From the NCBI GenBank assembly GCA_049513915.1, contig JBEKVN010000002.1:242-64241 (forward strand): a stretch of 64,000 nt of DNA. Reading direction: 5' to 3'. Each line of letters begins with the position of its first letter. Positions within the stretch are counted from its first letter, which is position 1. Under the pieces are notes generated by a model. It was not told the origin of the DNA. It did no database searches and saw only the letters and a list, made by a program, of their open reading frames with translations. This document shows positions 5,435 through 43,733 of this stretch, one piece after another. The stretch comes from Candidatus Aminicenantales bacterium. GTDB taxonomy: Bacteria > Acidobacteriota > Aminicenantia > Aminicenantales > Saccharicenantaceae. The position numbers and the translations under genes were made by a program.

Positions 5435-6157
5435 ATGATGAAACGTTTGTGCGCAATCATCTCTATTTTCCTAGCCCTGGCCGCGGGTGGCATCCTGGCG
5501 CAGGAGAAGGCCGCGGCCCAGGAGACCTCGAGTTCCGTGCCCGAGCTCGAAGCCTTTCATGAAATCATCTATCCGATCTGGCACACGGCATACCCCGAGA
5601 AGGACATCGCCGCCCTGAAGGGCTATGTCCCCCGGATCAACGAGCTGGCGGCGAAGATCTACGCGGCCAAGCTTCCGGGTATCCTCCGGGAAAAGGAAGC
5701 CGCGTGGACGGCGGGTGTGGACAAACTCAAGCAGGCCGTCGACGCCTATAACACGGCGGCCAAGGGAGCCGATGGCCAGGCCCTGCTCAATGCCGCCGAG
5801 GCTCTCCACATGAGGTACGAGACGCTCGTGAGGGCCATCCGGCCGGTCCTCCCCGAAATGGACGCCTTCCATAAGGAACTGTACGTGGTTTATCACCGGT
5901 ACCTGCCGGACAAAAAATGGGACGACGTCCGGAAGGCCGCCCCCGCGATGAAGGCCCTGGCCGACGCCGTGGCCAAGGTCCAGCTCCCGAAGCGGCTCGA
6001 GGCCAAGACCGGGATGTTCAAGACTGCCGCGGCGAGTCTCGTCGAGGCGACCGCCGCGCTCGAAGGCCTCGCCAAGAGCGGCGACGCCGCCGCGCTGGAG
6101 CAAGCCGTCGTCAAGGTCCACGCGAAATACCAGGCCCTGGAAAAGGTCTTCGAATAA
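5435..6157 (+). CDS. Secreted hypothetical protein with an internal ~95-aa tandem duplication
   Basis: Signal peptide MMKRLCAIISIFLALAAGGILAQ. Two homologous halves (FHEIIYPIWHTAYPEKDIAALKGYVPRINELAAKI... / FHKELYVVYHRYLPDKKWDDVRKAAPAMKALADAV...). Strong RBS GGGAGG. Confidence 0.55.
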   Translation: MMKRLCAIISIFLALAAGGILAQEKAAAQETSSSVPELEAFHEIIYPIWHTAYPEKDIAALKGYVPRINELAAKIYAAKLPGILREKEAAWTAGVDKLKQAVDAYNTAAKGADGQALLNAAEALHMRYETLVRAIRPVLPEMDAFHKELYVVYHRYLPDKKWDDVRKAAPAMKALADAVAKVQLPKRLEAKTGMFKTAAASLVEATAALEGLAKSGDAAALEQAVVKVHAKYQALEKVFE

Positions 6158-6176: not shown

Positions 6177-8003
6177 CTACGCTTCCTTAGGGCAGGGGGT
6201 GTGCTCTTCGATGAGCGCCTGAAGGATCTCGAGTTCGTCGGAGTCGAACCAGATCTTTGAGCACGACAGACACTTATCCACCGGCACGAAATACTGATAA
6301 TTGTAGGGTCGGGGCGCCATCCTGTAGCCGCAGGCCGGGCAGGGGACCTCTCCGGTCACCGAGGCGTTGATCTTCCGCCTCTTCGCGGGATCGGCGAGGA
6401 CGTTCTCTTCGAACGCCCGGGCCTTGGCGGCGAGGTCGCCGGAGAATGCGACCTCACGGCGGGCGATGATCCTCTCGACTCCGGCCGCGTCCACGAGTTT
6501 CCCCGTGCATCGCCGGCAAATCCGGATGGCGACGCCTTCATAATACGCTTCGGCGAGGGGAAGCCGGCAACGCGGGCAGAGATTCTGGCGCCCGGGGACA
6601 AGCGGCTTTTTCCTGGCCAGATTCCTGAGGGCGACCCGCACCTGGGGGAATTCCCGGGCTCCGGCTTCGATTCCTTCCTGCGTGTTCTTGACGAGCATCG
6701 ACGCCGAAAACCTCGGGAGGCAGACGAGCTCGCCCATGGTCAAGGGGCCTTCCCATCTTCCGGCCTGTCCGGTTGCGAGGAGCCAGATGCGGGCTTCGTC
6801 GGGGGGGAGGAATGAGGCCTCGGGGGAGGGGGGCCCGCCCGCCGCCCCTGCGCTTGCCGCGGCGGGCGCAGGCCCGTCCGGAGATATCAATTCCCCGCAC
6901 CCCGGGAAGAGCTCGAGTTGGCCTTTCTTGATTTCCTCAAAGGAATGGATGACCCCGCGGGCCTGCTCCCGGAGGTTCACGCTTTGGCGAACCTCGCCGA
7001 TGACCTCGGCCGGGGTTCTGTGCGCCATGGCCGCCAGGATCCCCAGCCGTTTCATGAACGGCGGGTGGGAGTTAAAAATCCTCCCGGCCAGCGTATCCGG
7101 CACATCCTTCGCGCCGGGAGGGACGATGAAGAGGGGTGTATACGTGAGGGAAAAATCCCCGATGAACGAGTTCTTCACCTGGGCCTTGTAGATGGCCCGG
7201 GCCAGGGACTCCGGCGCCCGGCAGAGCTCGACGGCGGCCGCGTCGGCCAGGAGCTCCCGTTCGCGGCTCACCAGCATGCTCAGGAGATGCATGGCGAGCG
7301 CGGAGAGGTCGAGCGCGAAATAAAAGAGGAAGGGCGCCCTTCTCGCTTGGACGCGCCCGCTCCGCTCGGCCCCGGGTCCCGCGAAATCCTCCCGCTCCGG
7401 TTCCAGGGCTTCCTGAAGCCTTTCGAAGACGTTGGCCAGGGAACAGACAAGGGTCAGGTAGAAGGCGTCGCCCCGGGCGATGTGCGCGAGCTCATGGGCG
7501 GCCACGGCTTCGAGCTCGTCGCGCGTCCCGTCGGCCAGGAGGCCCTCCGTGACGGCGACGGCGGGGGTGCCGTCGCCTTCGATCAGGGCCAGGGAATTGA
7601 TGGCGAACGAGGGCAGCACATACCCGTTGACGCGGGGGAGGCCGGCGGCGATGCGGATCCCGTCGAGCGTGTCGAGGAATTGCTTATGATAACGGTCGGC
7701 GGGATCGGGGATCGCAGCCTGAAGCCGCTTGAGGATGTATCGGGGTCCGTTGCGCTTGGCGTCCAGAAAATGAAGGACGGCCACGACCGTCGCGGCGGCC
7801 AGGTCGAAAATCATAAAGCGGACCCAGAAATGCGGCGTCCCGAACGTCCCCCGCGCTAAAAGGAGGCCGAAGCTCAGGACGAGGGCCAGGGCGATGGCTC
7901 CGAGCGCGACGACGTAGAAGGCGATGACGGCGAAAAAGAGGGAGAGGCTCTTGGCCCGCTGGCTTTTCTGGACTTCGTAAAAATCCTTGGGGACCGCGGC
8001 CAT
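6177..8003 (-). CDS. M48-family zinc metallopeptidase with N-terminal TM helices and two C-terminal zinc-ribbon (zf-TFIIB-like) modules
   Basis: HExxH motif in AAHELAHIARGD. N-terminal hydrophobic helices. C-terminal CPRCRLPL...CRRCTGKLVD and CPACGYRMAP...CLSCSKIWFDSDELEIL (the CPxCG...CxxCxxxWxDxxEL pattern). Confidence 0.7.
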   Translation of the reverse strand: MAAVPKDFYEVQKSQRAKSLSLFFAVIAFYVVALGAIALALVLSFGLLLARGTFGTPHFWVRFMIFDLAAATVVAVLHFLDAKRNGPRYILKRLQAAIPDPADRYHKQFLDTLDGIRIAAGLPRVNGYVLPSFAINSLALIEGDGTPAVAVTEGLLADGTRDELEAVAAHELAHIARGDAFYLTLVCSLANVFERLQEALEPEREDFAGPGAERSGRVQARRAPFLFYFALDLSALAMHLLSMLVSRERELLADAAAVELCRAPESLARAIYKAQVKNSFIGDFSLTYTPLFIVPPGAKDVPDTLAGRIFNSHPPFMKRLGILAAMAHRTPAEVIGEVRQSVNLREQARGVIHSFEEIKKGQLELFPGCGELISPDGPAPAAASAGAAGGPPSPEASFLPPDEARIWLLATGQAGRWEGPLTMGELVCLPRFSASMLVKNTQEGIEAGAREFPQVRVALRNLARKKPLVPGRQNLCPRCRLPLAEAYYEGVAIRICRRCTGKLVDAAGVERIIARREVAFSGDLAAKARAFEENVLADPAKRRKINASVTGEVPCPACGYRMAPRPYNYQYFVPVDKCLSCSKIWFDSDELEILQALIEEHTPCPKEA

Positions 8004-14572: not shown

Positions 14573-15670
14573 ATGAGAACGCGACGCGAGGGCGGATTCA
14601 ATCGCCGGGATTTCCTCAAGGGCGTGGGCCTGGGGGTCTTCGGGGCGGCAGCCCTCGGCCGTGATCTCGTCGCCGGGAGCGCGAACGGGACCGCGGGACT
14701 CGCGGGAAGCCCTCCGGCCGGGGGCCAGGCCGCGCCCGTCCCCCGATGCGGGCGTGGGCTCTACGCGGCGGTTGATGAGACGGCCACGGTCAGCCTGGTC
14801 AAGGGCAACGACCGGAGGGCGATCGTCCACCAGTCGCTCATGGCGATCGAGGACGACGTCTTCGCCGCGATCGGCAATAAGCAGGTGATGATCAAGCCGA
14901 ACGTGTGCGTCGACAAAAAGCCCCTCGCGGTCACCCACGTCGACGCCGTGCGGGCCGTCCTCGACGTTCTGGCGCCCCGCCTGACGTCTCCCATCCTGAT
15001 CGCTGAGTCGGGCGTTTTCAACACATTTGACGGCTATAAGAACAACGGCTACCTGCCGCTCGAGAAGGAGTACAACTGCAAGCTCGTGGACCTGAACGCG
15101 GGGGAGACGCGCTATCACTACGTCCTCAACAAGGACAACAAACCCCAGCCGGTCCGGCTCGTCGCGCCCTTTCTCGACCCAGGCCTGTTCATCATTTCGG
15201 TGGCCCGGATGAAGACGCACAGCGAAGTGGTCGTCACTCTGGCCCTGAAGAACCTGATCATGGCCGCGCCGGTCCAGGATTACAAGAAAAGCGACAAGGG
15301 GTTCATGCACCAGGGACCGTATACGCCCAACCAGATCCTCCATTTCAACCTGTTCCACATCGCCCAGAAGGTTTATCCGGACCTGGCCGTCATCGACGGC
15401 TTCGAGTCCATGGAAGGCGACGGCCCGGCTTGGGGGACGCTCTTCGATTCGCGGGTGGCCATCGCCAGCCTGGATGCGCTGGCCGCGGACGTCGTCGGCA
15501 CCACAGTCATGGGATTCGACGCCCAGAAAATCCTGTACCTTTCGGCCATGACCAAAGCCGGCATGGGGCAAGGAGACATGGCGAAGATCCGGGTCCTCGG
15601 CACGCCCCTCGCCCAGTGCCTCTATAAATTCAAGCCCCACAGGCACGTCGCGGAAATCTACAAGCTCTGA
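14573..15670 (+). CDS. Tat-secreted DUF362-domain protein
   Basis: Twin-arginine motif RRDFLKGVGLGVFGAAALG. Core ...NKQVMIKPNVCVDKKP... resembles DUF362 proteins. GGGGAGGGG RBS. Confidence 0.5.
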   Translation: MRTRREGGFNRRDFLKGVGLGVFGAAALGRDLVAGSANGTAGLAGSPPAGGQAAPVPRCGRGLYAAVDETATVSLVKGNDRRAIVHQSLMAIEDDVFAAIGNKQVMIKPNVCVDKKPLAVTHVDAVRAVLDVLAPRLTSPILIAESGVFNTFDGYKNNGYLPLEKEYNCKLVDLNAGETRYHYVLNKDNKPQPVRLVAPFLDPGLFIISVARMKTHSEVVVTLALKNLIMAAPVQDYKKSDKGFMHQGPYTPNQILHFNLFHIAQKVYPDLAVIDGFESMEGDGPAWGTLFDSRVAIASLDALAADVVGTTVMGFDAQKILYLSAMTKAGMGQGDMAKIRVLGTPLAQCLYKFKPHRHVAEIYKL

Positions 15671-15770
15671 TTCTAATTCGGTGACATATAACTAATTACC
15701 GAATTAGAGAGGAATCGTCAAAAGAGTGACAGGCAGAGAGTTTTGGTATTTAGTTATGTGTCACCGAATT
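15664..15770 (+). promoter_or_regulatory. Leader/operator-like region upstream of the BASS transporter with three ACCGAATT/AATTCGGT boxes able to form alternative pairings
   Basis: TAATTCGGT-(15 nt)-ACCGAATTA hairpin at 15666–15697. A third copy TGTCACCGAATTGTGAC at 15757–15773 is complementary to the first AATTCGGTGACA, and GTCAC…GTGAC is itself palindromic. Confidence 0.35.
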
Positions 15771-15798: not shown

Positions 15799-17100
15799 AT
15801 GATGTCCAAGAGAAAGATATTCCTGGCGGCGTTCCTAGTGGCGGTGGCGCTCCTCGCGGGTTCCCTCATCGCCGGCCTCCGGTCCTGGACGGGGGTCTTC
15901 GCTATCGCGGGGCTCGCGGCCGCGGCCCTTTACGCCATGTCCCATGCCGCGCTGAAAAGCTTCGCCTTCACTCTCTGGGTCTTCGCCTTCGTCGCGGCCT
16001 CCATGTTCCACCCGGCGGCCTTCGGGACGTGGTTCGGGGCCGACCTGCGGATACTGATCGTCCCCCTCATTCAGGTCATCATGTTCGGCATGGGCACCAC
16101 TCTGAGCGCCCGGGATTTCGGGCGCGTCCTGACCATGCCCTGGCCGATCCTGATCGGGGTCGTCCTCCAGTTCACGATCATGCCGCTCGTCGGGTGGGGG
16201 ATCGCGACCGTTTTCGGGTTCGATGCCGAGGTGGCCGCCGGCATCATCCTGATCGGCTCGGTCTCAAGCGGTCTCGCCTCGAACGTCATGTCCTACCTGG
16301 CCGGGGGGAATGTGCCCCTTTCGGTCACGATCACATCCGTCACGACGCTCATCTCGCCGTTCGCCACGCCGCTTTGGATGAAGCTCCTGGCCGGCCGGCT
16401 CATCCCCGTCAACGTCGTCGAGATGATGATGTCCATCCTCAACATGATCATCGTCCCCGTGGTCGCGGGCCTCGTCGCGCACCGGATCCTTTACGGGGAC
16501 GGCGGGGACAGGCCCGGCAAACGAGGGGCGGCGGGGCTGGCTGTCTTGGCCGCCGCTGCCCTGGCCTCCGGCGCCGGAGTGATACTTGTCAAGGCTTCAA
16601 CGTTCGGCGTCTTTGCCCCGCTCAAGGGAGGTCTCGTGCTCGGCTTCTTCCTTGTCGGCTTCGCGGCCGCGGCCCGGTTGGCGGCGGCGGTCTGGCTCAA
16701 AACGCCATCGAATTGGATTGACCGCGCACTTCCTTCGGTCTCCATGTTCGGGATCTGCCTGATCATCGGGATCATCACGGCCCGTTCGCGCAATGAACTC
16801 CTTTCGGTCGGGATGGCCCTCTTCGCCGCCGCCATCCTCCATAACGGCCTCGGGTATTTCCTTGGCTACTGGGGGGCGAGGGCCGCCCGGCTGGATGAAA
16901 GCTCCTGCCGGACCGTGGCCTTCGAGGTCGGGATGCAAAACGGCGGCATGGCCTCGGGGATCGCGATGGAGGTCCTCAAGAGCTCGAGTGCCGCTTTGGC
17001 GCCGGCCATTTTCGGCCCGTGGATGAACATCTCCGGCTCGATCCTCGCCAACTGGTGGCGGCGCCACCCGGCCCAAGGGCCTGGAGGACTTAAGAAATAG
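15799..17100 (+). CDS. Bile acid:sodium symporter (BASS/SBF-like) family transporter
   Basis: About 10 predicted TM helices. Family-typical stretch SSGLASNVMSYLAGGNVPLSVTITSVTTLISPFATPLW. Confidence 0.65.
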   Translation: MMSKRKIFLAAFLVAVALLAGSLIAGLRSWTGVFAIAGLAAAALYAMSHAALKSFAFTLWVFAFVAASMFHPAAFGTWFGADLRILIVPLIQVIMFGMGTTLSARDFGRVLTMPWPILIGVVLQFTIMPLVGWGIATVFGFDAEVAAGIILIGSVSSGLASNVMSYLAGGNVPLSVTITSVTTLISPFATPLWMKLLAGRLIPVNVVEMMMSILNMIIVPVVAGLVAHRILYGDGGDRPGKRGAAGLAVLAAAALASGAGVILVKASTFGVFAPLKGGLVLGFFLVGFAAAARLAAAVWLKTPSNWIDRALPSVSMFGICLIIGIITARSRNELLSVGMALFAAAILHNGLGYFLGYWGARAARLDESSCRTVAFEVGMQNGGMASGIAMEVLKSSSAALAPAIFGPWMNISGSILANWWRRHPAQGPGGLKK

Positions 17101-23229: not shown

Positions 23230-24714
<1,485 letters not shown>

Positions 24715-24931
24715 ATAAAATAACCGGAATTTGGCCACCGTTTTTGGCCTTAACTATTTGTTTTTGGGGTCGAAAAAGAGGACTTAAGCTATTCAGCCAC
24801 AGAATATCCGACAAAAAGTATCCCTTATTGCTAGATTCCTTAACTCTTGTTTTTCGGCCTCCAAAACGCGGACTTAAGGCATAAAAAGGCCCCATTTAGT
24901 CGTTTATCTGTATTATTATAAATAAGTTAAG

Positions 24932-24958
24932 TTGGTCCGACCCCAAATCTGCTATAAT
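24932..24958 (+). promoter_or_regulatory. Possible hrpA promoter built on the repeat box: TTGGTC-N15-TATAAT ending 6 nt before the ATG
   Basis: TATAAT at 24953–24958 and TTGGTC (part of the TTGGTCCGACCCCAA box) at 24932–24937. The spacing is short (15 nt), so this is weak. Confidence 0.25.
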
Positions 24959-24964
24959 GCGGGC

Positions 24965-27900
24965 ATGGACAAGCGGGAGGCGGGGCAGACGACGGCCTCG
25001 GGTCATCTCCGGAAGATCCGCGAGCTTCTTGACCGAGCTATGCTCCGCGATAAAGAACAGGCCGTCCGTGCGCTGAGCGTGCTCCAAAGGCAACACGGGG
25101 GAGGCGCGCGGCCCGTGTCCGAGGGGCTCCTCCGCGACCTGGCCGCGCTCGAGGAACGGCTGGCGGCTTCGGCCGGCGAATGTCAGCGCCGGGCCCGCGC
25201 CCGGCCGCGAGTTTCGTATCCGCGCGAACTCCCCATCACCGCGCGCGCCGGCGAGATCATCGAGGCCATCCGCTCGCCCCGCAATCGGGTCGTCATCATC
25301 TCGGGGGAGACCGGCTGCGGCAAGAGCACCCAGATCCCTAAGATGTGCCTCGAGGCGGGGCGGGGGGTCGCCGGGCTCATCGGCTGCACTCAGCCGCGGC
25401 GCATCGCCGCCGTCACCATCGCCTACCGGATCGCCGAAGAGCTGGGTGAGGAGCTCGGCCGCTCCGTGGGCTACAAGATCCGCTTCCAGGACCGGACCTC
25501 CCGTGACGGCTACGTCAAGATCATGACCGACGGCATTCTGCTCGCCGAAACTCAGGGCGACCGCCGCCTCACGGACTATGACACGATCATCATCGACGAG
25601 GCCCACGAGCGCTCCCTCAACATCGATTTCCTCCTCGGCATCATGCGCCGGCTCCTCGACGACCGGCCCGAGCTCAAGCTGGTCATCACTTCGGCGACCC
25701 TGGATACGGAGAAGTTCTCGCAGGCCTTCCGGAACGCGCCCGTCATCGAGGTCAGCGGTCGGCTCTACCCCGTCGAGCTCGAGTACCGCCCGCCCGCGAA
25801 GGACACGGCCGAAGACAAGGACTACGTGGACCAGGCGGTCGAGGCCGTCGAATACATCCGGTGGGACAAGGCGGCCGGCGACATTCTCGTCTTCATGCCG
25901 ACCGAACAGGACATCCTCGAGACGCGCCGCATCCTCGAGGGGCGTAAATTTCCGGATACGGCGGTCCTGCCGCTCTTCTCGCGCCTGCCGGCGGGGCAGC
26001 AGCGCATGGTCTACAGCGTGAGCCGGCCGAAAATCGTCATCGCCACGAACGTCGCCGAGACTTCGCTTACGATCCCCGGCATCCGCTACGTCGTGGACAC
26101 GGGAGTCGCGCGGATCGCCCAGTACCAGCCGGGGACGCGCATCAACAGCCTGCCGATCAGCCCGATCTCGCGGGCTTCGGCGGACCAGCGCAAGGGGCGC
26201 TGCGGCCGCGTCCGGGAAGGGCTCTGCGTCCGGCTCTACTCGGAAACCGAATACGAATCGCGCGACGAATTCACGTCGCCGGAGATCCTGCGCTCGGACC
26301 TGGCCGAGGTCATCTTGAGGATGATCGACCTGGGGTTGGGTCATCCGCTCGAGTTCCCGTTCATCGACCGGCCCGCGGCCAAAACCGTGCGCGACGGCTA
26401 CGAAACGCTCGTCGAGCTCGGCGCGATTTCCAGAAGGGGGACACAATACTCTGTCCCTGAATATGAGCGGTCGGGAAAAGCGGGACAGAGTATTGTGTCC
26501 CCCTTAAGGATAAATGCGCAAGGCCCCGATTGGGCGCTCACCGACAAGGGCCGGATCATGGCCCGGATGCCCCTGGACCCGCGCGTCTCCCGAATGCTCG
26601 TCGAGGCCGGCCGCGAGAATTGCCTCCCCGAGGTCGCCGTCCTGGCCGCCGCCCTGAGCATCCGCGACCCGCGCGAGCGGCCTCCCGAGCTCGCGTCCCA
26701 GGCCGATGCCGTGCACGCCGCCTTCCGTGACCCGAACAGCGATTTCCTGCTTCTCCTGAACATTTGGAACCGCTACCACGGCGATTTTGAAAAGCTCGGG
26801 ACGGTCACCCAGAAGCGCAAGTTCTGCCACGATCATTTCCTCTCGTTCCCCAGGATGCGCGAGTGGGTCTACCTCTATGACGAGATCCGCTCTGTCCTCT
26901 CCGAACAGCACCAGACGCCGGGCAAAACCAAAGGGGAAGTCGGGCCCAAAAATCCGGAAACAAATATTGTGTCGCCGAAAAATAAATTGAAAGCGGAGGG
27001 CAAGGCGGCCGTCGTGCCCCACGCCGATATCTCGCCCGTCCTTTATGCCGCCATCCATCGCTCTATCCTGGCGGGATTCCTGTCAAATATCGCCGCTCTC
27101 AAAGAAAAGCGCATCTACACCGCGGCCAAGAACCGGGAGGTGACCCTCTGGCCGGGTTCCGTCCTCTTCAGCAAGGCGCCCGCCTGGATCGTGGCCACCG
27201 AGGTCGTCAAGACCTCGCGTCTGTTCGCCCGCCAGGCCGCGCGCATCGACCCCGCCTGGCTCGAGGACCTGGGCGGCTCCCTCTGCAAGCGCTCCTATTA
27301 CGACGCCGCCTGGGACCGCGGCCGTGGCGAGGTCGCGGCCAAGGAGCGGGTCACCCTGTTCGGCCTGGAGATCCTTCGCGACCGGCGCGTTTCCTACGGC
27401 CGGATCAACCCGGCCGAGGCGCATGAGATCTTCGTCATGTCCGGGTTGGTTGAAGGAGAGGTGGACGGTCCGCCCGCCTTCCTCCCGCACAACCTCGGCC
27501 TCCAGCACAAGGTCGAGGCCATGGAGGAAAAGCTCCGCCGCCGCGACATCATGATTCCCGAGGCCGAAATCGCCAAGCTCTATTCGGCCCGCCTGCCCGG
27601 AATTTGCGACATCCGGTCGCTTCTCAAGCTCATCAAGGACCGGGGCGGCGACGATTTCCTGCGCTTCACCGAAGACGACCTCATCCTCAGGCGCCCCGAC
27701 GCCGATACGGTGTCCGCGTTCCCCGACACAGTCGAGGTCGCCGGCCGCCCTTTCAGGGCTGTCTATAAGTTCGCCCCGGGCGAGGACGACGACGGCGTGA
27801 CCCTGAAGGTCCCGGCCTCGATCCTCTCCGCCATTCCCGACGGCCGGCTCGAATGGGGAGTCCCGGGGCAGTACAAGGACAAGATCGCCGCCCTGATCAA

Positions 27901-29332
27901 GGGCCTCCCCAAACGGTACAGGAAGCTCCTTGTCCCGGTGGGGGAGAAGGCTGAGACGATCGCCGCCGAGATGCCGCAGGCGCCGGAGGAGGCGCCGCTC
28001 GCGAAGGCCGTGGCGGAGTTCGTCAGGCGCCGGTTCGGGGCGGACATCCCGGCCCGCGAATGGGCCCTGGCCGAAGTCCCGAAATACCTGAGAATGCGCC
28101 TGGCCGTGACCGACCCCGCGACCGGCCGCGTCATTGACACCGGCCGCGACGTCGAGCTCCTGCGGAAAAAGATCGGCGCGGCGGACGAGGCCCCGTCGAA
28201 GGTCGAATCGCCCGCCTGGCAGGAGGCCCGCCGGAAATGGGAAAAGGCGGGATTGACGTCGTGGGTCTTCGGCGATTTGCCGGCCAAGATCGTTGTCGGG
28301 ACATCCCTCACGGCCTATCCCGCGCTCGCGGTCGAGGGCGGCCAGGCTTCGGTTGAAATCCGCCTTTTTCCGGCGCGGGCCGAGGCCGAGGCGTCTCACC
28401 GACTCGGCGTCCGTTGGCTCCTCATGCTGAAATTCGCCAAAGACCTGGGCTTCGTCAGGCGGTATCACAAGATTCCGGCCGAATATGAGCGTGCGGCGGT
28501 GGCCTTCGGAGGCCGCGACGCCGTGGAGCGGGCCATCGAGAGCGCCCTGGCCCGCGAGGTCTTCGAGCGGGACATCCGCACGGATGCGGATTATAAGGCC
28601 TACGAGGCCGAGGTCGGCCGGACGCTCTTCGAGAAGGGGCATGCCCTGACCCAGACGACGCTCAAGATCCTCGAACTCAACCAGGCCCTGCGGACGGAGC
28701 TCGGGAACGGCCGGCCCGCGACCCAGCGGGGGGCGTCAAGAAGGGGTCAAATCTTCATTCTGCCACTTTCCGGAAAGAACGAGCCCCAGAAAAAGTGGCA
28801 GAATGAAGATTTGACCCCTTCTTATTTGTCGCGCGGCCGCGTCAAAGAGCCCGTCGTCCCCGCTTACTTCGAAGAGATCGCGGGCGACCTGGACGAGCTC
28901 CTGCCCGCGAATTTTCTCGAAGTTTATCCGGTCGACAGGATCATCCGCATCCCGCGCCTCCTCGACGCCTTGAAGATCCGGCTGGGGCGCGCCCGGCTCG
29001 ATCCCGAGAAGGACAAGGCCAAGGCCGCTCAGGTCGAGCCCTTCGAATTCGCGTTATCTCAGTTCGAAGCGGAAACCCCGGGCGCCGGCGCGGGGACACC
29101 AGAATTGGGGACACAATACTCATTTCCGAATTACGGTGGGGGAGCGGGGACCAGAAAAACGGAAATTAGTATTGTGTCCCCGAATTTGGAAAAGCGCCGC
29201 GCGGTCGGGGAGCTCCGCCGCATGATAGAGGAGTTCAAGGTCTCCCTTTTCGCTCCCGAGATCAAGACCGTCTTTCCCATCTCGGCCGTCCGCTTGGCCC
29301 GCAAGATCAAAGAGATCGAGGCGATTGTTTAA
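24965..29332 (+). CDS. hrpA: ATP-dependent RNA helicase HrpA (DEAH-box) carrying several in-frame palindromic insertions
   Basis: Motifs GETGCGKSTQIPK, IIIDEAHERS, SATLD and QRKGRCGR, plus an HrpA-type C-terminal region. The track ORF begins at a TTG inside a repeat (24932); the ATG at 24965 (MDKREAGQ...) is preferred. Total length about 1455 aa, longer than typical HrpA because of the insertions. Confidence 0.9.
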   Translation: MDKREAGQTTASGHLRKIRELLDRAMLRDKEQAVRALSVLQRQHGGGARPVSEGLLRDLAALEERLAASAGECQRRARARPRVSYPRELPITARAGEIIEAIRSPRNRVVIISGETGCGKSTQIPKMCLEAGRGVAGLIGCTQPRRIAAVTIAYRIAEELGEELGRSVGYKIRFQDRTSRDGYVKIMTDGILLAETQGDRRLTDYDTIIIDEAHERSLNIDFLLGIMRRLLDDRPELKLVITSATLDTEKFSQAFRNAPVIEVSGRLYPVELEYRPPAKDTAEDKDYVDQAVEAVEYIRWDKAAGDILVFMPTEQDILETRRILEGRKFPDTAVLPLFSRLPAGQQRMVYSVSRPKIVIATNVAETSLTIPGIRYVVDTGVARIAQYQPGTRINSLPISPISRASADQRKGRCGRVREGLCVRLYSETEYESRDEFTSPEILRSDLAEVILRMIDLGLGHPLEFPFIDRPAAKTVRDGYETLVELGAISRRGTQYSVPEYERSGKAGQSIVSPLRINAQGPDWALTDKGRIMARMPLDPRVSRMLVEAGRENCLPEVAVLAAALSIRDPRERPPELASQADAVHAAFRDPNSDFLLLLNIWNRYHGDFEKLGTVTQKRKFCHDHFLSFPRMREWVYLYDEIRSVLSEQHQTPGKTKGEVGPKNPETNIVSPKNKLKAEGKAAVVPHADISPVLYAAIHRSILAGFLSNIAALKEKRIYTAAKNREVTLWPGSVLFSKAPAWIVATEVVKTSRLFARQAARIDPAWLEDLGGSLCKRSYYDAAWDRGRGEVAAKERVTLFGLEILRDRRVSYGRINPAEAHEIFVMSGLVEGEVDGPPAFLPHNLGLQHKVEAMEEKLRRRDIMIPEAEIAKLYSARLPGICDIRSLLKLIKDRGGDDFLRFTEDDLILRRPDADTVSAFPDTVEVAGRPFRAVYKFAPGEDDDGVTLKVPASILSAIPDGRLEWGVPGQYKDKIAALIKGLPKRYRKLLVPVGEKAETIAAEMPQAPEEAPLAKAVAEFVRRRFGADIPAREWALAEVPKYLRMRLAVTDPATGRVIDTGRDVELLRKKIGAADEAPSKVESPAWQEARRKWEKAGLTSWVFGDLPAKIVVGTSLTAYPALAVEGGQASVEIRLFPARAEAEASHRLGVRWLLMLKFAKDLGFVRRYHKIPAEYERAAVAFGGRDAVERAIESALAREVFERDIRTDADYKAYEAEVGRTLFEKGHALTQTTLKILELNQALRTELGNGRPATQRGASRRGQIFILPLSGKNEPQKKWQNEDLTPSYLSRGRVKEPVVPAYFEEIAGDLDELLPANFLEVYPVDRIIRIPRLLDALKIRLGRARLDPEKDKAKAAQVEPFEFALSQFEAETPGAGAGTPELGTQYSFPNYGGGAGTRKTEISIVSPNLEKRRAVGELRRMIEEFKVSLFAPEIKTVFPISAVRLARKIKEIEAIV
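26436..26503. repeat. Perfect 22-bp inverted repeat (GGGGGACACAATACTCTGTCCC … GGGACAGAGTATTGTGTCCCCC, 24-nt loop) inside the hrpA coding frame
   Basis: Read directly at 26436–26457 and 26482–26503. Encodes …SRRGTQYSVPEYERSGKAGQSIVSP… between conserved HrpA blocks (…LVELGAI | LTDKGRIMARMPLDPRVSRML…). Confidence 0.9.
26956..26993. repeat. Degenerate solo arm of the same GGGACAC-type element inside hrpA
   Basis: GGAAACAAATATTGTGTCGCCGAAAAATAAATTGAAAG resembles the right arm of the 29102–29187 element (CGGAAATTAGTATTGTGTCCCCGAATTTGGAAAAG). No partner arm is visible. Confidence 0.45.
28738..28823. repeat. Perfect 32-bp inverted repeat (AAGAAGGGGTCAAATCTTCATTCTGCCACTTT … AAAGTGGCAGAATGAAGATTTGACCCCTTCTT, 22-nt loop) inside the hrpA coding frame
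   Basis: Read directly. Encodes …RGQIFILPLSGKNEPQKKWQNEDLTPSYL… in frame. Confidence 0.9.
29102..29187. repeat. Near-perfect inverted repeat (GAATTGGGGACACAATACTCATTTCCG … CGGAAATTAGTATTGTGTCCCCGAATTT) inside the hrpA coding frame, sharing the GGGACAC core with the RAYT REPs
   Basis: Arms with 1–2 mismatches and a ~31-nt loop. Encodes …ELGTQYSFPNYGGGAGTRKTEISIVSPNLEK… in frame. The first 15 nt are identical to the 26436 element. Confidence 0.85.
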
Positions 29333-29459
29333 CCACGGCCCGAAGCGCACCCCGATCCAACCCGTTTCCGGATGGCGTCCAGGCGGGATTTGAAGTAACA
29401 TGGACGGGCGGGCCGCGCCCGACGCGCCCGATCGACACGGGAGAAACGGAGGGTTCATC

Positions 29460-30992
29460 ATGGGCTCAAGCATGCCGCCAAATCCGCGCTCGAAAAGCTA
29501 TGACCTCGTCGTCGTCGGGAGCGGCGTCGGTGTCACCGTGCTCGAAGTAGGCCTCAAGCACGGCCTCAAGTGCGCCCTCGTTGAATCCGGAAAAATCGGC
29601 GGGACATGCCTGAACCGCGGCTGCATCCCCTCGAAGATTCTGACCGTGCCCGCGGACGTCATCCGCGAGGCGGAGCACGCCCGGAAGATCGGGGCGGGCC
29701 TCCGGTCCGACCAGCCGGATTGGGATCTTGTGGCGCGCCGGATGTGGGACAAGATCGCCGAAAACGAGCAGATGGAGCGGGGTCTGGCCGGAGTGCCGGG
29801 CTTGGACGTTTACCGCGGGACGGGAGAATTCACCGGCGACCTCCAGTTGCGGGTGGCCCCCAACGACGGCTCGCCCGTGGTGGAGTTCACGGCCGCCCGC
29901 TTCGTCCTGGCGACGGGGGCCCGGTCTTTCATTCCCCCGGTCAGCGGTCTCGACGAGACCGGATACGTGACGAGCGAGTCGTTTTTCGGGGCGAAGTTCC
30001 CGCGCGCGCCCTGGAAGAGCCTGGTCATCGTCGGCGGGGGAGTCATCGCCGCCGAATTCGCCCACGTCTTCTCCGCTTTTGGGGCAAAGGTCTCGGTCAT
30101 CGAGATGGAACCGCGGCTCCTGCCGGCCGAAGAGCCCGAGGTGAGCTCGTTCGTGGCCCTCGAGTTCGGGAAGACGATGACGGTCCAACTCGACGCCAAG
30201 GCCGTCGCCGCCCGTCCGGGGACGCACGGCACGAAGGTCGTCACCTTCGAAAACGTGAAAACCGGACAAACGGGCGAGGCCGAGGGGGAGGAGATCCTTG
30301 TCGCCGTCGGCCGCCGCTCGAACGCCGACCTCCTGCATCTCGAAAAAACGGGGGTCAAGACCGATGCCCGCGGCTGGATCGCCGTAAACGAATTCCTCGA
30401 GACAACGCGGCCCGGGATCTGGGCGATCGGCGACGCCGTCGGCGGGTATCAATTCCGGCACAAGGCGAATTATGATTCGGATATCTGCGCCCACAACCTG
30501 TTCGAGACATCGCACGCGAAGGTTCCCGTCGATTATTCGGTCGTCCCCTGGGCGGTCTACACGCACCCCCAGGTCGGCCACGCGGGGATGACCGAGCGGC
30601 AGGCGCTCGAGGCCGGCCACGAGATCTACCGCGCCATCCACCGGTACTCGGACGTGGCCAGGGGATACGCCCTGGGCTACGATGCCGGGGACCCGGACGA
30701 TGGGTTCGTTAAGCTCATCGTGGACAGGTCCCTGCGGATCCTCGGCGCCCACGTCGTCGGGCCCCATGCGTCGACACTCGTCCAGCCCTTCGTTTACCTC
30801 ATGAACGCCGGCTACACGTGCGTCCCTCCGGAGAAGCGGGGCGAGCCACTCATCCCGAAAGAACTGAGGGTCTGCCCCGAGGCGGGCTCCATCATGCCGA
30901 TTTACCGTTCGATGGTCATCCATCCCTCGCTCAACGAGGTCACCGCTTGGGCGCTCCGCGAACTCCATCCGGTGAATTTTAAGACCGGATAG
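29460..30992 (+). CDS. Class I pyridine-nucleotide-disulfide oxidoreductase (dihydrolipoamide dehydrogenase / mercuric reductase-like flavoprotein)
   Basis: FAD-binding GxGxxG (DLVVVGSGVGV). Redox-active disulfide GGTCLNRGCIPSK. Second NAD-binding fold (LVIVGGGVIAAEFA). GGAGGG RBS 8 nt upstream of the ATG at 29460. Confidence 0.75.
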   Translation: MGSSMPPNPRSKSYDLVVVGSGVGVTVLEVGLKHGLKCALVESGKIGGTCLNRGCIPSKILTVPADVIREAEHARKIGAGLRSDQPDWDLVARRMWDKIAENEQMERGLAGVPGLDVYRGTGEFTGDLQLRVAPNDGSPVVEFTAARFVLATGARSFIPPVSGLDETGYVTSESFFGAKFPRAPWKSLVIVGGGVIAAEFAHVFSAFGAKVSVIEMEPRLLPAEEPEVSSFVALEFGKTMTVQLDAKAVAARPGTHGTKVVTFENVKTGQTGEAEGEEILVAVGRRSNADLLHLEKTGVKTDARGWIAVNEFLETTRPGIWAIGDAVGGYQFRHKANYDSDICAHNLFETSHAKVPVDYSVVPWAVYTHPQVGHAGMTERQALEAGHEIYRAIHRYSDVARGYALGYDAGDPDDGFVKLIVDRSLRILGAHVVGPHASTLVQPFVYLMNAGYTCVPPEKRGEPLIPKELRVCPEAGSIMPIYRSMVIHPSLNEVTAWALRELHPVNFKTG

Positions 30993-37415: not shown

Positions 37416-37796
37416 CTATCCCAGGCGATAGGGGATAAGGATGAACGGGTGCCTTTTTTCATCGAAATCCTTCGAGTCTCTAGTCACCAGCTTGAGGCCG
37501 CTCCGAAGGGCCATGGCAGCCTGGAGCGCGTCCGGAAGCCTCCAGCCGTTTCTCTTCCTCAATTCGGCGGCCCTCGTGGCAACATCCTTCGTCAAGGGCA
37601 GGCACTCGAACTGCTCGCATAGCTCATAGGCGGCAAGCGTCTCGTCTTCGGTTCCCCCGCATAACACCTCTGCCCGCGTGATCACGGAAATGACGGCCTC
37701 TCCCTCACGTAGCTTCTGAAGCCATTTCGTCGCCTCTACGATTCCCCGGAGATGGTCGATAAGAACTGTCGAATCCAGAAGATAGACCGGCTTCAC
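37416..37796 (-). CDS. vapC: PIN-domain toxin VapC (second pair)
   Basis: MKPVYLLDSTVLIDHLRG...VITRAEVLCG...LVTRDSKDF is a canonical PIN/VapC. Overlaps the upstream antitoxin gene by 4 nt. Confidence 0.8.
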   Translation of the reverse strand: MKPVYLLDSTVLIDHLRGIVEATKWLQKLREGEAVISVITRAEVLCGGTEDETLAAYELCEQFECLPLTKDVATRAAELRKRNGWRLPDALQAAMALRSGLKLVTRDSKDFDEKRHPFILIPYRLG

Positions 37797-38180: not shown

Positions 38181-38241
38181 AGAAGGGGTCGTATCTACGC
38201 ATTACGCATTTTCCGCGTAATGCGTAGATACGACCCCTTCT
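38181..38241. repeat. Intergenic perfect 27-bp inverted repeat with AGAAGGGGTC…GACCCCTTCT termini (same terminal motif as the 28738–28823 hrpA element)
   Basis: AGAAGGGGTCGTATCTACGCATTACGC attttcc GCGTAATGCGTAGATACGACCCCTTCT. Lies between the vapB start region and the stop of the glycine-zipper gene. Confidence 0.85.
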
Positions 38242-38249
38242 ACTCCAGT

Positions 38250-38801
38250 TTACCTGAATTCCGGGACGCGGGCCTTTTTTCTGAGGGCTTCGATGGCGGC
38301 GTTGATTTTGTCCGGCGTCTCTCCCCGGAAGTTGTAGACTTTGTCCTTGCTGAGCAAGATCCCGAGTCCGTACCCGGCCCCGCCGCCGATGACCACCCCC
38401 AGCCCGGCGAACGGCCATTGCGTTGATTTGGTGACCGGGATATGGGTTTCGTCGCCCTTTTTCCCCAGGGCAAAACCGATAAAGCCGCCGGCCACCGCGC
38501 CGATAACGAGTGTCAAGGGCTTCAGGGACTCGCGCACGACACCGACCGTATCGATGTCCCTGATCTCCACCGTTCTCTCCCGGGAGCCGACCTGGACGAC
38601 GATTTTGTCCCCGCTGATCCCGATCAATTCGCCCAGGATCGTCCCGGGAGATATCAGGGTCACCCGGACCTCAGCGCCCTGTTGCCGCACAGCCAGGGCT
38701 GCCTGGGGCACTCCGGCCATCATGACGGCCATCCCCGACACGATGAGGCCCAGCCGCATCCGTCGCCAGCTGAAACCCTTAATTTTCGCCCATCCGTTCA
38801 T
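38250..38801 (-). CDS. Exported hypothetical protein with glycine-zipper motifs
   Basis: N-terminal signal/TM MRLGLIVSGMAVMMAGVPQAALA. G-x3-G repeats (VIGAVAGGFIGFALG; GLGVVIGGGAGYGLGILL). Confidence 0.45.
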   Translation of the reverse strand: MNGWAKIKGFSWRRMRLGLIVSGMAVMMAGVPQAALAVRQQGAEVRVTLISPGTILGELIGISGDKIVVQVGSRERTVEIRDIDTVGVVRESLKPLTLVIGAVAGGFIGFALGKKGDETHIPVTKSTQWPFAGLGVVIGGGAGYGLGILLSKDKVYNFRGETPDKINAAIEALRKKARVPEFR

Positions 38802-42480: not shown

Positions 42481-42892
42481 CGGCGGGGGGGCTCTTCTCC
42501 GTGGCAGTATTTGTCACGCAGGCGCGGGAATCGACCAGCGAAGCGCAAAGATTTGGCGAATCTGGGCGGAACAAATCTACGCTGTCCCCATTATTTCTCT
42601 TGACATTTGAGGTTTGGATAATTTAGGATTCAAATAACCTTTCTACTTAGAAAGGTCAAGGAAGGGTTGTTTAGTTGGCGGAACCGATCGGCACCGAAGA
42701 AGGGGCAGCACCAATCCTCTCTCTTTTTTATTGTGAAGTGACCTCTGTGCATTGCCCTTTATGTCCCCGACCCTGCATTATCTAAATTTCGGTGCCGGCC
42801 TGCCGCGGTTCTTATGAGCATCTGCGGTAGATGATGTGTGCGTGTTTTCGCCGTCCGCCTGCCTTCAGGCGCCCAAGGGCGGTAGCCTGTAA

Positions 42893-43040
42893 GGAAATTC
42901 GGGACACGGAAATTCGGGACATGTAACAATTCTCTGGAATTGGTACGTGTCCCAGGAATTTCCGTACGTGTCCCAGGAATTTCCGTACGTGTCCCAAGAA
43001 TTCCCGATCTCTTGAACCGGTGCGTGTCACCAGATTTCGT
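42893..43040. repeat. REP array: two inverted copies plus three to four tandem direct copies of a ~21-bp unit (core GGGACAC / GTGTCCC) immediately upstream of the RAYT gene
   Basis: Inverted units GGAAATTCGGGACACG and GAAATTCGGGACATG at 42893–42923. Tandem direct units TACGTGTCCCAGGAATTTCCG ×2 and TACGTGTCCCAAGAATTCCCG at 42945–43007. Degenerate fourth copy TGCGTGTCACCAGATTTCG at 43021–43039. Confidence 0.8.
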
Positions 43041-43052
43041 TATTGAGATAAA

Positions 43053-43733
43053 ATGGCCCGTCTCGCCCGTTCCATCCTCGTTGGCTACCCGCACCAGGTT
43101 ACCCAGCGCGGGAACTACGACCAGAATATCTTCCAGGAGGACGCGGACTACCGGCGCTACCTGGAATGGCTTTGCGAGTCCTCGACCCGGTACTCAACGG
43201 CCATTTGGGCTTATTGCCTGATGCCGAACCATGTCCATTACGTCTGCGTTCCCAGTGCCGCGGACGGGCTGTCCCGCACGTTCAATACCCTTCACATGAA
43301 GTACGCCCAACACGTCCACAGGAAAAAAGGCGTGACGGGCCACCTCTGGCGGGGGAGGTTCCTCTCGTGCATCCTCGACAATCCGAGCGTTTTCGAGGAG
43401 GTCAGGTTTATCGAAAACAATCCCATCAGGATGGGCCTCGTCGAGCGGCCCGAGGATTATCCCTGGTCAAGCGCCAGGAGCCACATCCTAGGCACACCTG
43501 ATCCAGCCCTCGCGGAAGGCTGCTTCCTGAAGGGTGAGGTCCTGGACTGGCGCGCCTATTTGGCGTCGGCACAGAATGAGGGTGTCGTTCGGCGGACCTG
43601 GGAGAGGCTGAAGACGGGGCGGCCTGCCGGGGATGAGGGATTCGTGCGCGGCCTCGAGAAGCTGACCGGCCGCCGGCTCGCGGCGTTGCCGAGGGGAAGG
43701 CCGAGGAAAAACACGGTCGCAGTGATAAAATGA
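43053..43733 (+). mobile_element. IS200/IS605-family Y1 (HUH) transposase of the REP-associated tyrosine transposase (RAYT) type
   Basis: HUH motif in YCLMPNHVHYVCVP. C-terminal IENNPIRMGLVERPEDYPWSSA contains the catalytic Tyr context Y-x-WSS seen in TnpA_REP/RAYT proteins. N-terminal GYPHQVTQRGN. Flanked by its own REP array. Confidence 0.75.

Follow-up and report, generated by a model that had tools for sequence, protein, structure and literature searches.

Introduction

Several families of mobile palindromes described in bacteria resemble the hairpins that we analyse here, which lie inside the reading frame of hrpA, the gene of an ATP-dependent DEAH-box RNA helicase, in a 64,000-nucleotide stretch of contig JBEKVN010000002.1 from a Candidatus Aminicenantales bacterium (Acidobacteriota). 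This whole stretch is called the window throughout. In systems that combine repetitive extragenic palindromes (REPs) with a tyrosine transposase of the REP-associated kind (RAYT), inverted doublets of a short palindrome, known as REPINs, are found mostly outside genes in tens to hundreds of copies and flank a single Y1 transposase gene; these systems are vertically inherited and long-lived, and the REPIN sequences are lineage-specific (Bertels & Rainey 2011, PMC3116915; bioRxiv 10.1101/2021.07.10.451892). TIRtrons are built of TIRYT tyrosine transposases flanked by inverted repeats that carry the motif GGGGWSAS, and these repeats form dispersed families, often in dimers (Di Nocera, De Gregorio, Rocco 2013, BMC Genomics 14:522; PMC3733652). 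The best-defined group of TIRYT transposases comes from Acidobacteria, and the terminal inverted repeat (TIR) sequences are only moderately abundant (PMC3733652).

The same catalogue lists REPs inside genes of several phyla, with an excess in nucleic-acid enzymes, where monomers or dimers are read in frame and contribute up to about 20–30 amino acids, sometimes twice in one open reading frame (ORF) (PMC3733652). The HrpA protein of Opitutus terrae (Oter_0009) is among these hosts, with two REPs at residues 662–668 and 1241–1248 (PMC3733652, Additional file 3). In Rickettsia, the palindromic elements RPE-1 to RPE-10 are mobile palindromes that persist in frame at fold-compatible positions (Ogata et al. 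2000, 2002, via PMC10969869). By the same account, these Rickettsia palindromic elements (RPEs) are about 100–150 bp long, occur only in Rickettsia and its relatives, lie in many unrelated genes and have no identified transposase.

Setting the window against these systems, we conclude that the hrpA hairpins are very probably non-autonomous mobile palindromes of the REP/REPIN type, kept as in-frame insertions in HrpA loops. In-frame mobile hairpins are a known but uncommon phenomenon, here unusually concentrated in one gene. As far as we found, a 13-nt core shared across phyla, a clade-wide multi-site pattern in a single gene and a measured nucleotide-level maintenance in inherited coding copies are undescribed.

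Palindromic insertions in an intact hrpA gene

The gene and the elements inside it are the following.

24965–29332, plus strand: hrpA coding sequence (ATP-dependent DEAH-box RNA helicase), with 1455 codons counted from the orthologues' ATG
26429–26510, no strand: E1, family A REPIN-like hairpin with cores GGGGACACAATAC / GTATTGTGTCCCC, reading in frame ...RRGTQYSVPEYERSGKAGQSIVSPL...
26933–26993, no strand: E2, decayed family A element; left arm gone, right-arm remnant AATCCGGAAACAAATATTGTGTCGCCGAA, reading ...PETNIVSPK...
28738–28823, no strand: E3, family B hairpin made of AAGAAGGGGTCAAATCTTCATTCTGCCACTTT and its reverse complement around a 22-nt loop, reading ...RRGQIFILPLSGKNEPQKKWQNEDLTPSY...
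29099–29189, no strand: E4, family A REPIN-like hairpin, reading ...PELGTQYSFPNYGGGAGTRKTEISIVSPNL...

The open frame around hrpA runs from 24932 to 29332 on the plus strand (1466 codons counted from a TTG at 24932), and we place the start at the ATG at 24965; orthologues begin MD(K/T)RES. The product scores 1184 bits against TIGR01967, above the cut-off of 723, and is full-length, with the helicase core, the HA2/OB part and the DUF3418 region intact. Pfam reports the domains DEAD, Helicase_C, HA2_C, OB_NTP_bind and DUF3418; among PDB entries, E. coli HrpA is matched best (E=2e-249), and the helicase motifs are invariant across the orthologue alignment. A protein search assigned the window to Candidatus Aminicenantes (Acidobacteriota) and returned HrpA orthologues with lengths from about 1290 to 1670 amino acids. 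At the 5' end of the gene, a perfect TATAAT stands 6 nt before the ATG (window 24953–24967, CTGCTATAATGCGGGCATGGAC) and is kept in L001 and L002 (loci and proteins from other genomes are given by L and P numbers). With no space left for a Shine-Dalgarno sequence, this conserved arrangement suggests a leaderless hrpA mRNA.

Repeat finding recovered all four elements where the original prediction, made from the letters of the window, had placed three long inverted repeats and a degenerate solo arm, in a frame that stays open, as it had stated, for about 1455 codons. The arms of E1 (26429–26457 / 26482–26510) are 29 nt long and match at 93%, with a perfect 22-bp core at 26436–26457 / 26482–26503, and the element enters between ...LVELGAI and LTDKGRIMARMPLDP. 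Those of E3 (28738–28769 / 28792–28823) are complementary over all 32 nt, while those of E4 (29099–29128 / 29160–29189) match at 87% over 30 nt. The right-arm remnant of E2 (26949–26976) retains 68–81% identity to the other arms, with two to three mismatches in its core (26962–26976).

Two sequence families are distinguished. Family A follows the consensus AAATT-GGGGACACAATAC-(C/T)(A/C)ATTTCCGAATT, a variable GC-rich loop, and AATTCGGAAAT(T/G)(A/G)-GTATTGTGTCCCC-(G/C)AATT, taken from codon alignments; its members E1, E2 and E4 share the peptide reading GTQY(S/Q)FPN...SEISIVSP. Family B, represented by E3, consists of AGAAGGGGTCAAATCTTCATTCTGCCACTTT, a loop and the reverse complement, and encodes RRGQIFILPLSGK...KWQNEDLTPSY. 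Both stand out from their host gene in composition, with a GC content of 0.47–0.55 inside the elements against about 0.65–0.75 in the remaining hrpA. The third-position GC of hrpA is about 0.82–0.86; the element arms instead use A/T-ending codons (ACA, CAA, ATT, AGT).

Folding of the arms as RNA gave energies of −53.1 kcal/mol for E1 (z −9.2), −56.9 for E3 (z −12.7) and −44.3 for E4 (z −6.9), reached in none of 200 shuffles, whereas the E2 remnant and two control segments of hrpA folded in no unusual way; the fold check that the original prediction had proposed thus finds three highly stable hairpins and one ordinary remnant. Within the window, GGGGACACAATACTC has three exact copies and one with a single mismatch, all in hrpA; when up to three mismatches are allowed it has 9 matches against 1.2 expected, a number that none of 100 shuffles reaches, and AAGAAGGGGTCAAATC has 5 against 0.7 expected, again reached by no shuffle. 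Inverted repeats of at least 20 nt with arms no more than 150 nt apart number ten in the window. Its five longest true hairpins are all REP-like, and three of them fall in hrpA, which makes up 6.8% of the sequence (binomial P ~0.003); the other two are the intergenic hairpins at 15675–15770 and 38181–38241. An Rfam scan of 24000–30000 gave only sub-threshold miRNA-precursor matches on the perfect hairpins and no known RNA family, and a full-text search for the core strings found none among the papers searched.

The inserts contain no stop codon and have lengths that are multiples of three; they would for this reason be translated in frame as disordered loop additions of 20–30 amino acids, leaving the helicase intact.

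Filled and empty sites among orthologues

Occupancy of the four sites was followed in a protein alignment of 29 HrpA orthologues and in codon alignments of seven hrpA genes, the window's own and six whose DNA was fetched. Each site is filled in some and empty in other Aminicenantes orthologues of 75–92% identity, with the flanks aligned on both sides, which bears out the earlier claim that the inserts fall between conserved HrpA blocks. E1 is missing in P0002, P0005, P0007, P0011 and P0012 and present in P0003, P0004, P0006 and others; at this site P0002 and P0005 read ...GAIRRED(T/S)-WALTD... where the window reads ...GAISRR-GTQYSVPEYERSGKAGQSIVSPLRINAQGPD-WALTD.... At the E2 site, a full family A hairpin sits at the exact position in L002, L003, L005, L006 and L246, and the window keeps only the remnant. 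E3 is missing in P0003, P0011 and more distant orthologues; E4 is missing in P0011, P0014 and P0016 and present in many others. Neither E. coli HrpA nor orthologues of about 60% identity have the inserted segments. The same elements at the same sites were recovered from independent ENA and JGI assemblies.

Some sites have changed their occupant. The inner stems and loops of E1 in the window and L002 (TCTGTCCC / GGGACAGA) cannot be aligned with those of L005 and L006 (CAATTCCGAATT...) although the site is identical, which points to the swap-in of another subfamily at E1 rather than drift in place. At the E3 site of L001 (8794–8940), the usual family B left arm is followed by a full perfect hairpin of another family B subtype, GGGGTCAGGTCTAC... 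(GGGGTCAGGTCTACTTTCTTCCA / TGGAAGAAAGTAGACCTGACCCC), which stands in place of the right arm through nesting or replacement. The terminus of this subtype is also seen in L205, at 3032.

On this evidence, the occupied sites are inherited vertically in an Aminicenantes clade, with turnover through loss, decay (E2 in the window) and subfamily replacement (E1, and E3 in L001).

Age and nucleotide-level maintenance

Fourfold degenerate sites differ by 18–42% among the seven hrpA genes and provide a neutral scale. Against 30% at these sites, 13 complete orthologous family A elements have diverged by 26% in their flanking stems, by 46% in their loops and by 0.7% in their cores (4 of 572 comparisons, which trace to one substitution), the last a value inflated by ascertainment, the arms having been found by exact 12-mer match. 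The orthologous loops of E4 can be aligned gap-free and show a divergence of about 31%, equal to the neutral rate, so the E4 copies stem from one old insertion; their cores are unchanged. E3 and E4, at least, are old, vertically inherited insertions with intact cores.

The constraint acts on nucleotides rather than on the peptide, since no third codon position within the core varies while the third base of the proline codon just outside it varies among C, G and A. In family B the whole arms are preserved, with 0–2 differences in 62 nt among four genomes whose fourfold sites differ by 28–38%. Decayed copies also exist (E2 in the window and in L004, E4 in L003), and the pattern is bimodal, elements being either intact or decaying. 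We infer that the cores are kept either by the repeat population, through re-insertion or gene conversion, or by selection that acts on the hairpin.

Family A repeats beyond hrpA

We scanned species-representative genomes, one per species, for whole family A elements (GGGACACAATAC, 30–60 nt, GTATTGTGTCCC) and found them in at least 118 genome stretches from many phyla. The matches listed include Omnitrophota, Alpha-, Gamma- and Deltaproteobacteria, Planctomycetes, Clostridia, Actinomycetes, Elusimicrobia, Spirochaetota, Acidobacteriota and others, and a cultured Sphingomonas isolate is among the carriers listed. Across the cross-phylum copies listed the 13-nt core GGGGACACAATAC is invariant. 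The outer (7–9 nt) and inner (7–10 nt) stem segments vary between genomes and stay complementary between the arms. The outer and inner segments of one and the same arm also complement each other in many copies (in L034, for example, GAGTTTCG-GGGACACAATA-CGAAACTC), and each arm is therefore able to form a small stem-loop with the core as its loop. Because of this paired-arm, self-complementary layout, family A elements have the architecture of a REP doublet, that is, of a REPIN.

The cross-phylum copies listed are nearly all intergenic; long ORFs across them were considered as coding and rejected, their translations being low-complexity, high-GC frames. A scan of metagenome contigs with the Aminicenantes-type arm GGGACACAATACNNNTTTCCGAA found it in at least 120 loci, from which 143 elements were sampled (53 pairs and 90 solo arms). 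Only two of the 143 are verifiably in-frame copies within a gene, and both lie in L146, the only hrpA locus of the sample. A relaxed filter had left 48 sampled elements with a spanning open frame; these were rejected as coding on codon-position GC signatures that mismatch across the element, and the three best in-frame candidates outside hrpA were rejected when a six-frame view put them between a stop and the next start. A search of a 5.8-billion-protein database with the peptide profile GTQY...SIVSP returned 12 tiny hypothetical ORFs and missed the expected HrpA positives, so it is uninformative on other hosts. In P0121–P0132, intergenic family A hairpins are annotated as hypothetical proteins of 37–85 amino acids with GTQY...SIVSP, and tiny ORFs of this type in public databases are likely spurious.

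Nested or tandem intergenic copies, with an extra arm inside or beside a full hairpin, are common and were seen in L011, L013, L028, L042, L080, L091, L094, L113, L117 and L118. They suggest that existing family A copies attract new ones, which would account for the re-use of sites in hrpA.

A Y1 transposase between family A arms

In L194, L214 and L239 (and partially in L223), inverted family A arms 780–860 bp apart enclose an ORF of 224–237 amino acids, MPRIARVVIPxCPHHxIQRGNR...NHVHL...RYxERNPVRA. Homologues of 42–54% identity are likewise enclosed in L093, L103, L111 and L117, whose hosts are an alphaproteobacterial metagenome-assembled genome (MAG), a Sphingorhabdus MAG, a deltaproteobacterial MAG and an unclassified MAG, which makes seven loci besides the partial L223. 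The enclosed ORF matches Pfam Y1_Tnp (IS200-like) with 42 bits (cut-off 23), and HUH and catalytic-tyrosine motifs are seen by eye in the transposases. In L194 (2107–2778) and L214 (346–1017, minus strand), the transposase ORF ends within the right arm, so that ...RKRGRKKSE(N/M)SIVS is arm-encoded, in the same reading as SEISIVSP of HrpA. The REP-like mobile palindromes of the original prediction are thus matched by copies at hundreds of nearly always intergenic sites and by family A arms that flank a Y1 transposase.

Outside hrpA, the window itself holds a transposase of this type and further repeats.

43053–43724, plus strand: Y1/HUH transposase of RAYT/TIRYT type, 223 amino acids, with HUH motif NHVH and tyrosine motif RFIENNP
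42890–43040, no strand: REP array directly upstream of the window RAYT, with three tandem units AGGAATTTCC-GTACGTGTCCC, inverted partners, then a GGTGCGTGTCACC unit
15675–15770, no strand: intergenic REPIN-like hairpin of a related type, core GGTGACATATAAC / GTTATGTGTCACC, AATTC outer stems, 29-nt arms at 90%
38181–38241, no strand: intergenic hairpin with the family B terminus AGAAGGGGTC and 27-nt perfect arms

By tblastn and blastp, the window transposase is 40–42% identical over its full length to the RAYTs flanked by family A arms and 74% identical to the Y1_Tnp gene of L006, which lies 8 kb downstream of hrpA in that locus. It scores 33 bits against Pfam PF01797 (cut-off 23), while the top NCBIfam model, REP-associated tyrosine transposase, gives 63.5 bits, below its cut-off of 80. 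The core of the adjacent array, GGGACACGTAC, is one step from the family A core and has three exact matches, all within the array; the GGTGCGTGTCACC unit is also kept upstream of the L006 RAYT. The hairpin at 15675–15770 lies between ORFs that end at 15670 and start at 15799, and the one at 38181–38241 lies just downstream of an ORF at 38250–38801 (minus strand).

The transposase link concerns family A. That family B is a repeat family would follow from its presence and absence among orthologues, from related termini (38181 and L205) and from the nested subtype of L001.

Position of the inserts in the HrpA structure

The inserts were placed through an alignment to E. coli HrpA and the domain boundaries given in a cryo-EM study of HrpA bound to a disome (PMC11419001). 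E1 falls at about native residues 476–486, in the wing of the winged-helix domain and in a gap of the E. coli alignment, and E2 at about residues 607–614, in the loop that ends helical bundle HB1 right before the OB fold. The C-terminal Hook domain holds both E3 and E4 in its loops, and the E4 loop precedes the C-terminal helices. In an AlphaFold2 (AF2) model of the C-terminal 655 residues, with a mean predicted local distance difference test (pLDDT) of 77, the only two long coils of pLDDT<50 occupy model residues 450–497 and 576–606, between long confident helices, and they correspond to ORF residues 1261–1308 (E3) and 1387–1417 (E4). A model of the N-terminal 850 amino acids (mean pLDDT 52, good for coarse topology only) shows coils at E1, flanked by two short strands, and at E2, flanked by two helices. 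Because the AF2 coils agree with the E. coli alignment and the domain map in putting them in loops, the inserts are loop decorations, as the original prediction had expected of a structure check.

hrpA as a recurrent target

The longer orthologues hold more repeat-derived segments, placed in these loops and at two additional positions, near residues 833 and 1127. The extra segments comprise the family B subtype EGVRSTFFQ...KWKKVDLTPS and family A in another frame (GDTIPIS). The former, which is the peptide of the L001 subtype, fills the fifth HrpA site (near residue 1127) in P0004, P0010 and P0013.

Another signature, RYQVP...VPGT, marks P0085 and P0087, and the DNA that encodes it is palindromic and rich in GGTACC. 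In L245 (3001–7974, the more distant hrpA of P0087), GGTACC-rich palindromes sit in the same loops, such as CGGTACCTGGTACCAATGGCACC / GGTACCGCCGGTGCCAGGTACCG at 5681–5727, which reads RYQVP...VPGT; 12 of the 15 GGTACC sites of the locus are within hrpA. The E4 site of L245 has a hairpin ACGGGGGACAGGCGCC / GGCGTCTGTCCCCCGT at 7760–7810. The GGTACC-rich palindromes may be another repeat family.

Together with the two REPs of O. terrae HrpA, these observations make hrpA a recurrent sink for palindromic repeats. Unusually permissive loops, insertion bias or selection may lie behind the hotspot. From four events in one gene the original prediction had proposed a hotspot or a tolerance for insertions; the hotspot or tolerant target stands, but not all four events are recent, with E3 and E4 at least old and E1 replaced.

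Comparison with described systems

The closest likeness is to TIRtrons. The family A core GGGGACAC fits GGGGWSAS and family A arms flank a Y1/HUH gene; the motif is also fitted by GGGGTCAG (the L001 family B subtype) and GGGGACAG (the hairpin at the E4 site of L245), and family B of the window, GGGGTCAA, agrees at 7 of 8 positions. The TIRtron paper reports no intragenic copies of TIR repeats, whereas here they lie in frame in hrpA and the 13-nt core is identical across phyla. With REPIN-RAYT systems and REPtrons, family A shares inverted doublets, long hairpins, a mostly intergenic distribution and the flanking of a Y1 gene; it differs in a cross-phylum core, in the lack of a GTAG 5' tag and in a transposase that scores under the NCBIfam RAYT cut-off. 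The two REPs of O. terrae HrpA are near E2 and E3 by residue number only; they belong to families GTAG-18/19 in another phylum, in contrast to the up to four or five filled sites, the clade-wide presence and absence and the measured core conservation found here.

With RPEs, from which these elements are set apart by description, the likeness is in-frame persistence only: here the host is an Aminicenantes bacterium, the elements are 60–100 bp long and Y1-associated, they are overwhelmingly intergenic, and their intragenic copies are almost confined to hrpA. The original prediction had seen in them the pattern of the Rickettsia elements, rarely reported elsewhere. The in-frame persistence holds and the element identity does not; the phenomenon is indeed uncommon, but the 2013 catalogue covers several phyla and includes HrpA of O. 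terrae. The absence of the tag means that they are not classical GTAG/CGTC REPs, and the absence of a consistent target duplication together with a Y1 partner enzyme means that they are not miniature transposable elements with inverted repeats (MITEs) of the DDE type. They are thus best described, from motif and arrangement, as REPIN-like doublets of the GGGGWSAS TIR repeat/TIRYT class, and neither as RPEs nor as DDE MITEs.

Origin of the hairpins and alternative explanations

By analogy with REP/RAYT and IS200/IS605 systems, in which experiments have demonstrated this route, the Y1 tyrosine transposase enclosed by family A arms would mobilise the elements through single-stranded DNA. Copies landed in four HrpA loops (one in the winged-helix wing, one where HB1 ends and two in the Hook domain), where the retained cores would stay unchanged through repeated re-insertion, gene conversion from genomic repeats or hairpin selection.

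Several points weigh against this origin. The classical REP tag GTAG/CGTC is missing, and the core GGGGACACAATAC / GTATTGTGTCCCC has GTAT, inside the stem. The best NCBIfam match of the ORF enclosed by family A arms, NF047646 (REP-associated tyrosine transposase), reaches 55–63 bits, below the 80-bit cut-off. The window has no family A-type transposase, its own RAYT being a 40–42% paralogue beside a different REP type, so present-day mobility in this genome is unsupported for family A. In 1.75 Mb of fetched sequence, family B proper was found only at the E3 site of hrpA, with related termini only elsewhere. In the orthologue codon alignments neither a target-site duplication nor an empty-site junction could be cleanly delimited, since the flanks are palindromic and rich in AATT and the filled and empty alleles differ beyond the element in fast-evolving linkers. 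The reading of the inserts as translated is drawn from the open frame and the conservation of the remaining protein, and the ascertainment in the core comparison counts here too.

The alternative that survives best, although we consider it improbable, is that the hairpins are kept as useful. Ribosomes would pause or collide at the mRNA hairpins (24–32 bp), and HrpA activity would set its own full-length output; otherwise the loops would modify the binding of the Hook domain to the ribosome. HrpA of E. coli splits ribosomes that have collided and engages the mRNA where it enters the ribosome, with its Hook domain touching the collided ribosome (PMC11419001). Since HrpA rescues collided ribosomes, a feedback role for hairpins in its own mRNA is conceivable, and the hrpA hairpins are extremely stable. 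Further in favour of this idea, in-frame copies are rare and concentrated in hrpA (the two in-gene copies of the metagenome sample and three of the five strongest hairpins of the window), the cores and the entire family B arms stay constant in copies that were inherited, against a change of about 30% at neutral sites, other lineages have different repeat families in the same HrpA loops, and hrpA of the unrelated phylum Verrucomicrobia holds two REPs too. An extension of it, to which we give little weight, makes HrpA a preferred and possibly selected landing site for REPs, whose loops were colonised independently by unrelated families in Aminicenantes and Verrucomicrobia and whose hairpins may give feedback control or tune the contacts between Hook and ribosome.

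Against a useful role, many close orthologues are without one or several inserts and some without all (P0005, P0012 and P0014, for example), so no insert is required for HrpA, and E2 has decayed in this very genome. Core invariance needs no function specific to hrpA, because the intergenic cross-phylum copies share it. Di Nocera et al. took the insertion of such repeats into many unrelated proteins as an argument against functional constraint (PMC3733652).

It is less probable still that the elements are ordinary MITEs derived from insertion sequences with a DDE transposase, such as the TIMEs (Tn3-derived inverted-repeat miniature elements), which are mobilised in trans, leave target-site duplications and have inverted repeats that also start with GGGG. 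The terminal inverted repeats of our elements do start with GGGG, a GAATT on both sides of E4 might be a 5-bp duplication, and just upstream of hrpA there is a larger MITE-like element whose termini are GGGGTCGGACC. However, the AATT-containing flanks belong to the palindrome and covary between the arms across genomes as a stem, so they are not target duplications; on this ground a Tn3-like TIME/MITE with a 5-bp GAATT duplication was rejected. Other copies have no matching direct repeats, and the sole gene found between inverted family A arms, at the seven loci, encodes a Y1/HUH transposase and not a DDE enzyme. Tn3 inverted repeats end in ...TAAG, an end that the arms do not have.

That the segments are ancestral HrpA linkers or assembly or sequencing artefacts whose palindromy is incidental is hardly credible: all sequences do come from metagenome assemblies and the segments do lie in low-complexity, hard-to-align linkers, but independent ENA and JGI assemblies agree on elements and sites, the identical DNA motif recurs at hundreds of sites outside hrpA and in an isolate genome, the A/T-ending codons of the arms contrast with the third-position GC of hrpA, and E. 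coli HrpA and the orthologues of about 60% identity are without the segments.

Neighbourhood of hrpA

The spacer between fumC and hrpA is filled by a MITE-like element of about 270 bp (window 24650–24947) with termini GGGGTCGGACCAAATTAGG / ...TTGGTCCGACCCC and an internal 41-nt direct repeat at 24748–24788 and 24838–24878. At its left end, three tandem 12-nt units GTCGGGTTAGGG (24650–24690) lengthen the fumarase ORF, giving it the tail ...GRRVRGRVRGRVRGR.... In L001 (4741–5001) both the fumarase tail and the spacer element are present; L002 (2467–2563) keeps only the right terminus of the element, and the tail is missing in L002 and L006.

Directly 3' of hrpA, toxin-antitoxin pairs (PhdYeFM antitoxin, PIN, VapB) are found in L002, L003, L004 and L006, the last with a run of four. 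In the window, an ORF of 126 amino acids at 37416–37796 on the minus strand is PIN-like by eye.

Biological significance

The hrpA locus of these bacteria is a multi-site natural case in which selfish DNA hairpins were absorbed by a conserved enzyme without breaking it. It marks the HrpA loops that tolerate insertions of 20–30 residues, knowledge that helps in work to engineer or tag this ribosome-rescue helicase. It also defines a family of REP-like repeats that keeps one identical 13-nt core across many phyla and is tied to a clade of Y1 transposases, a tractable case for recognition by TIRYT and RAYT enzymes. For annotation, the repeats account for the spread of HrpA lengths between about 1290 and 1670 amino acids and for spurious tiny ORFs on intergenic copies. 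Finally, the bias of intragenic REPs toward nucleic-acid enzymes, long noted and unexplained, becomes experimentally approachable through their concentration in hrpA, the re-use of its loops by different families and the maintenance of the cores despite 30% neutral drift.

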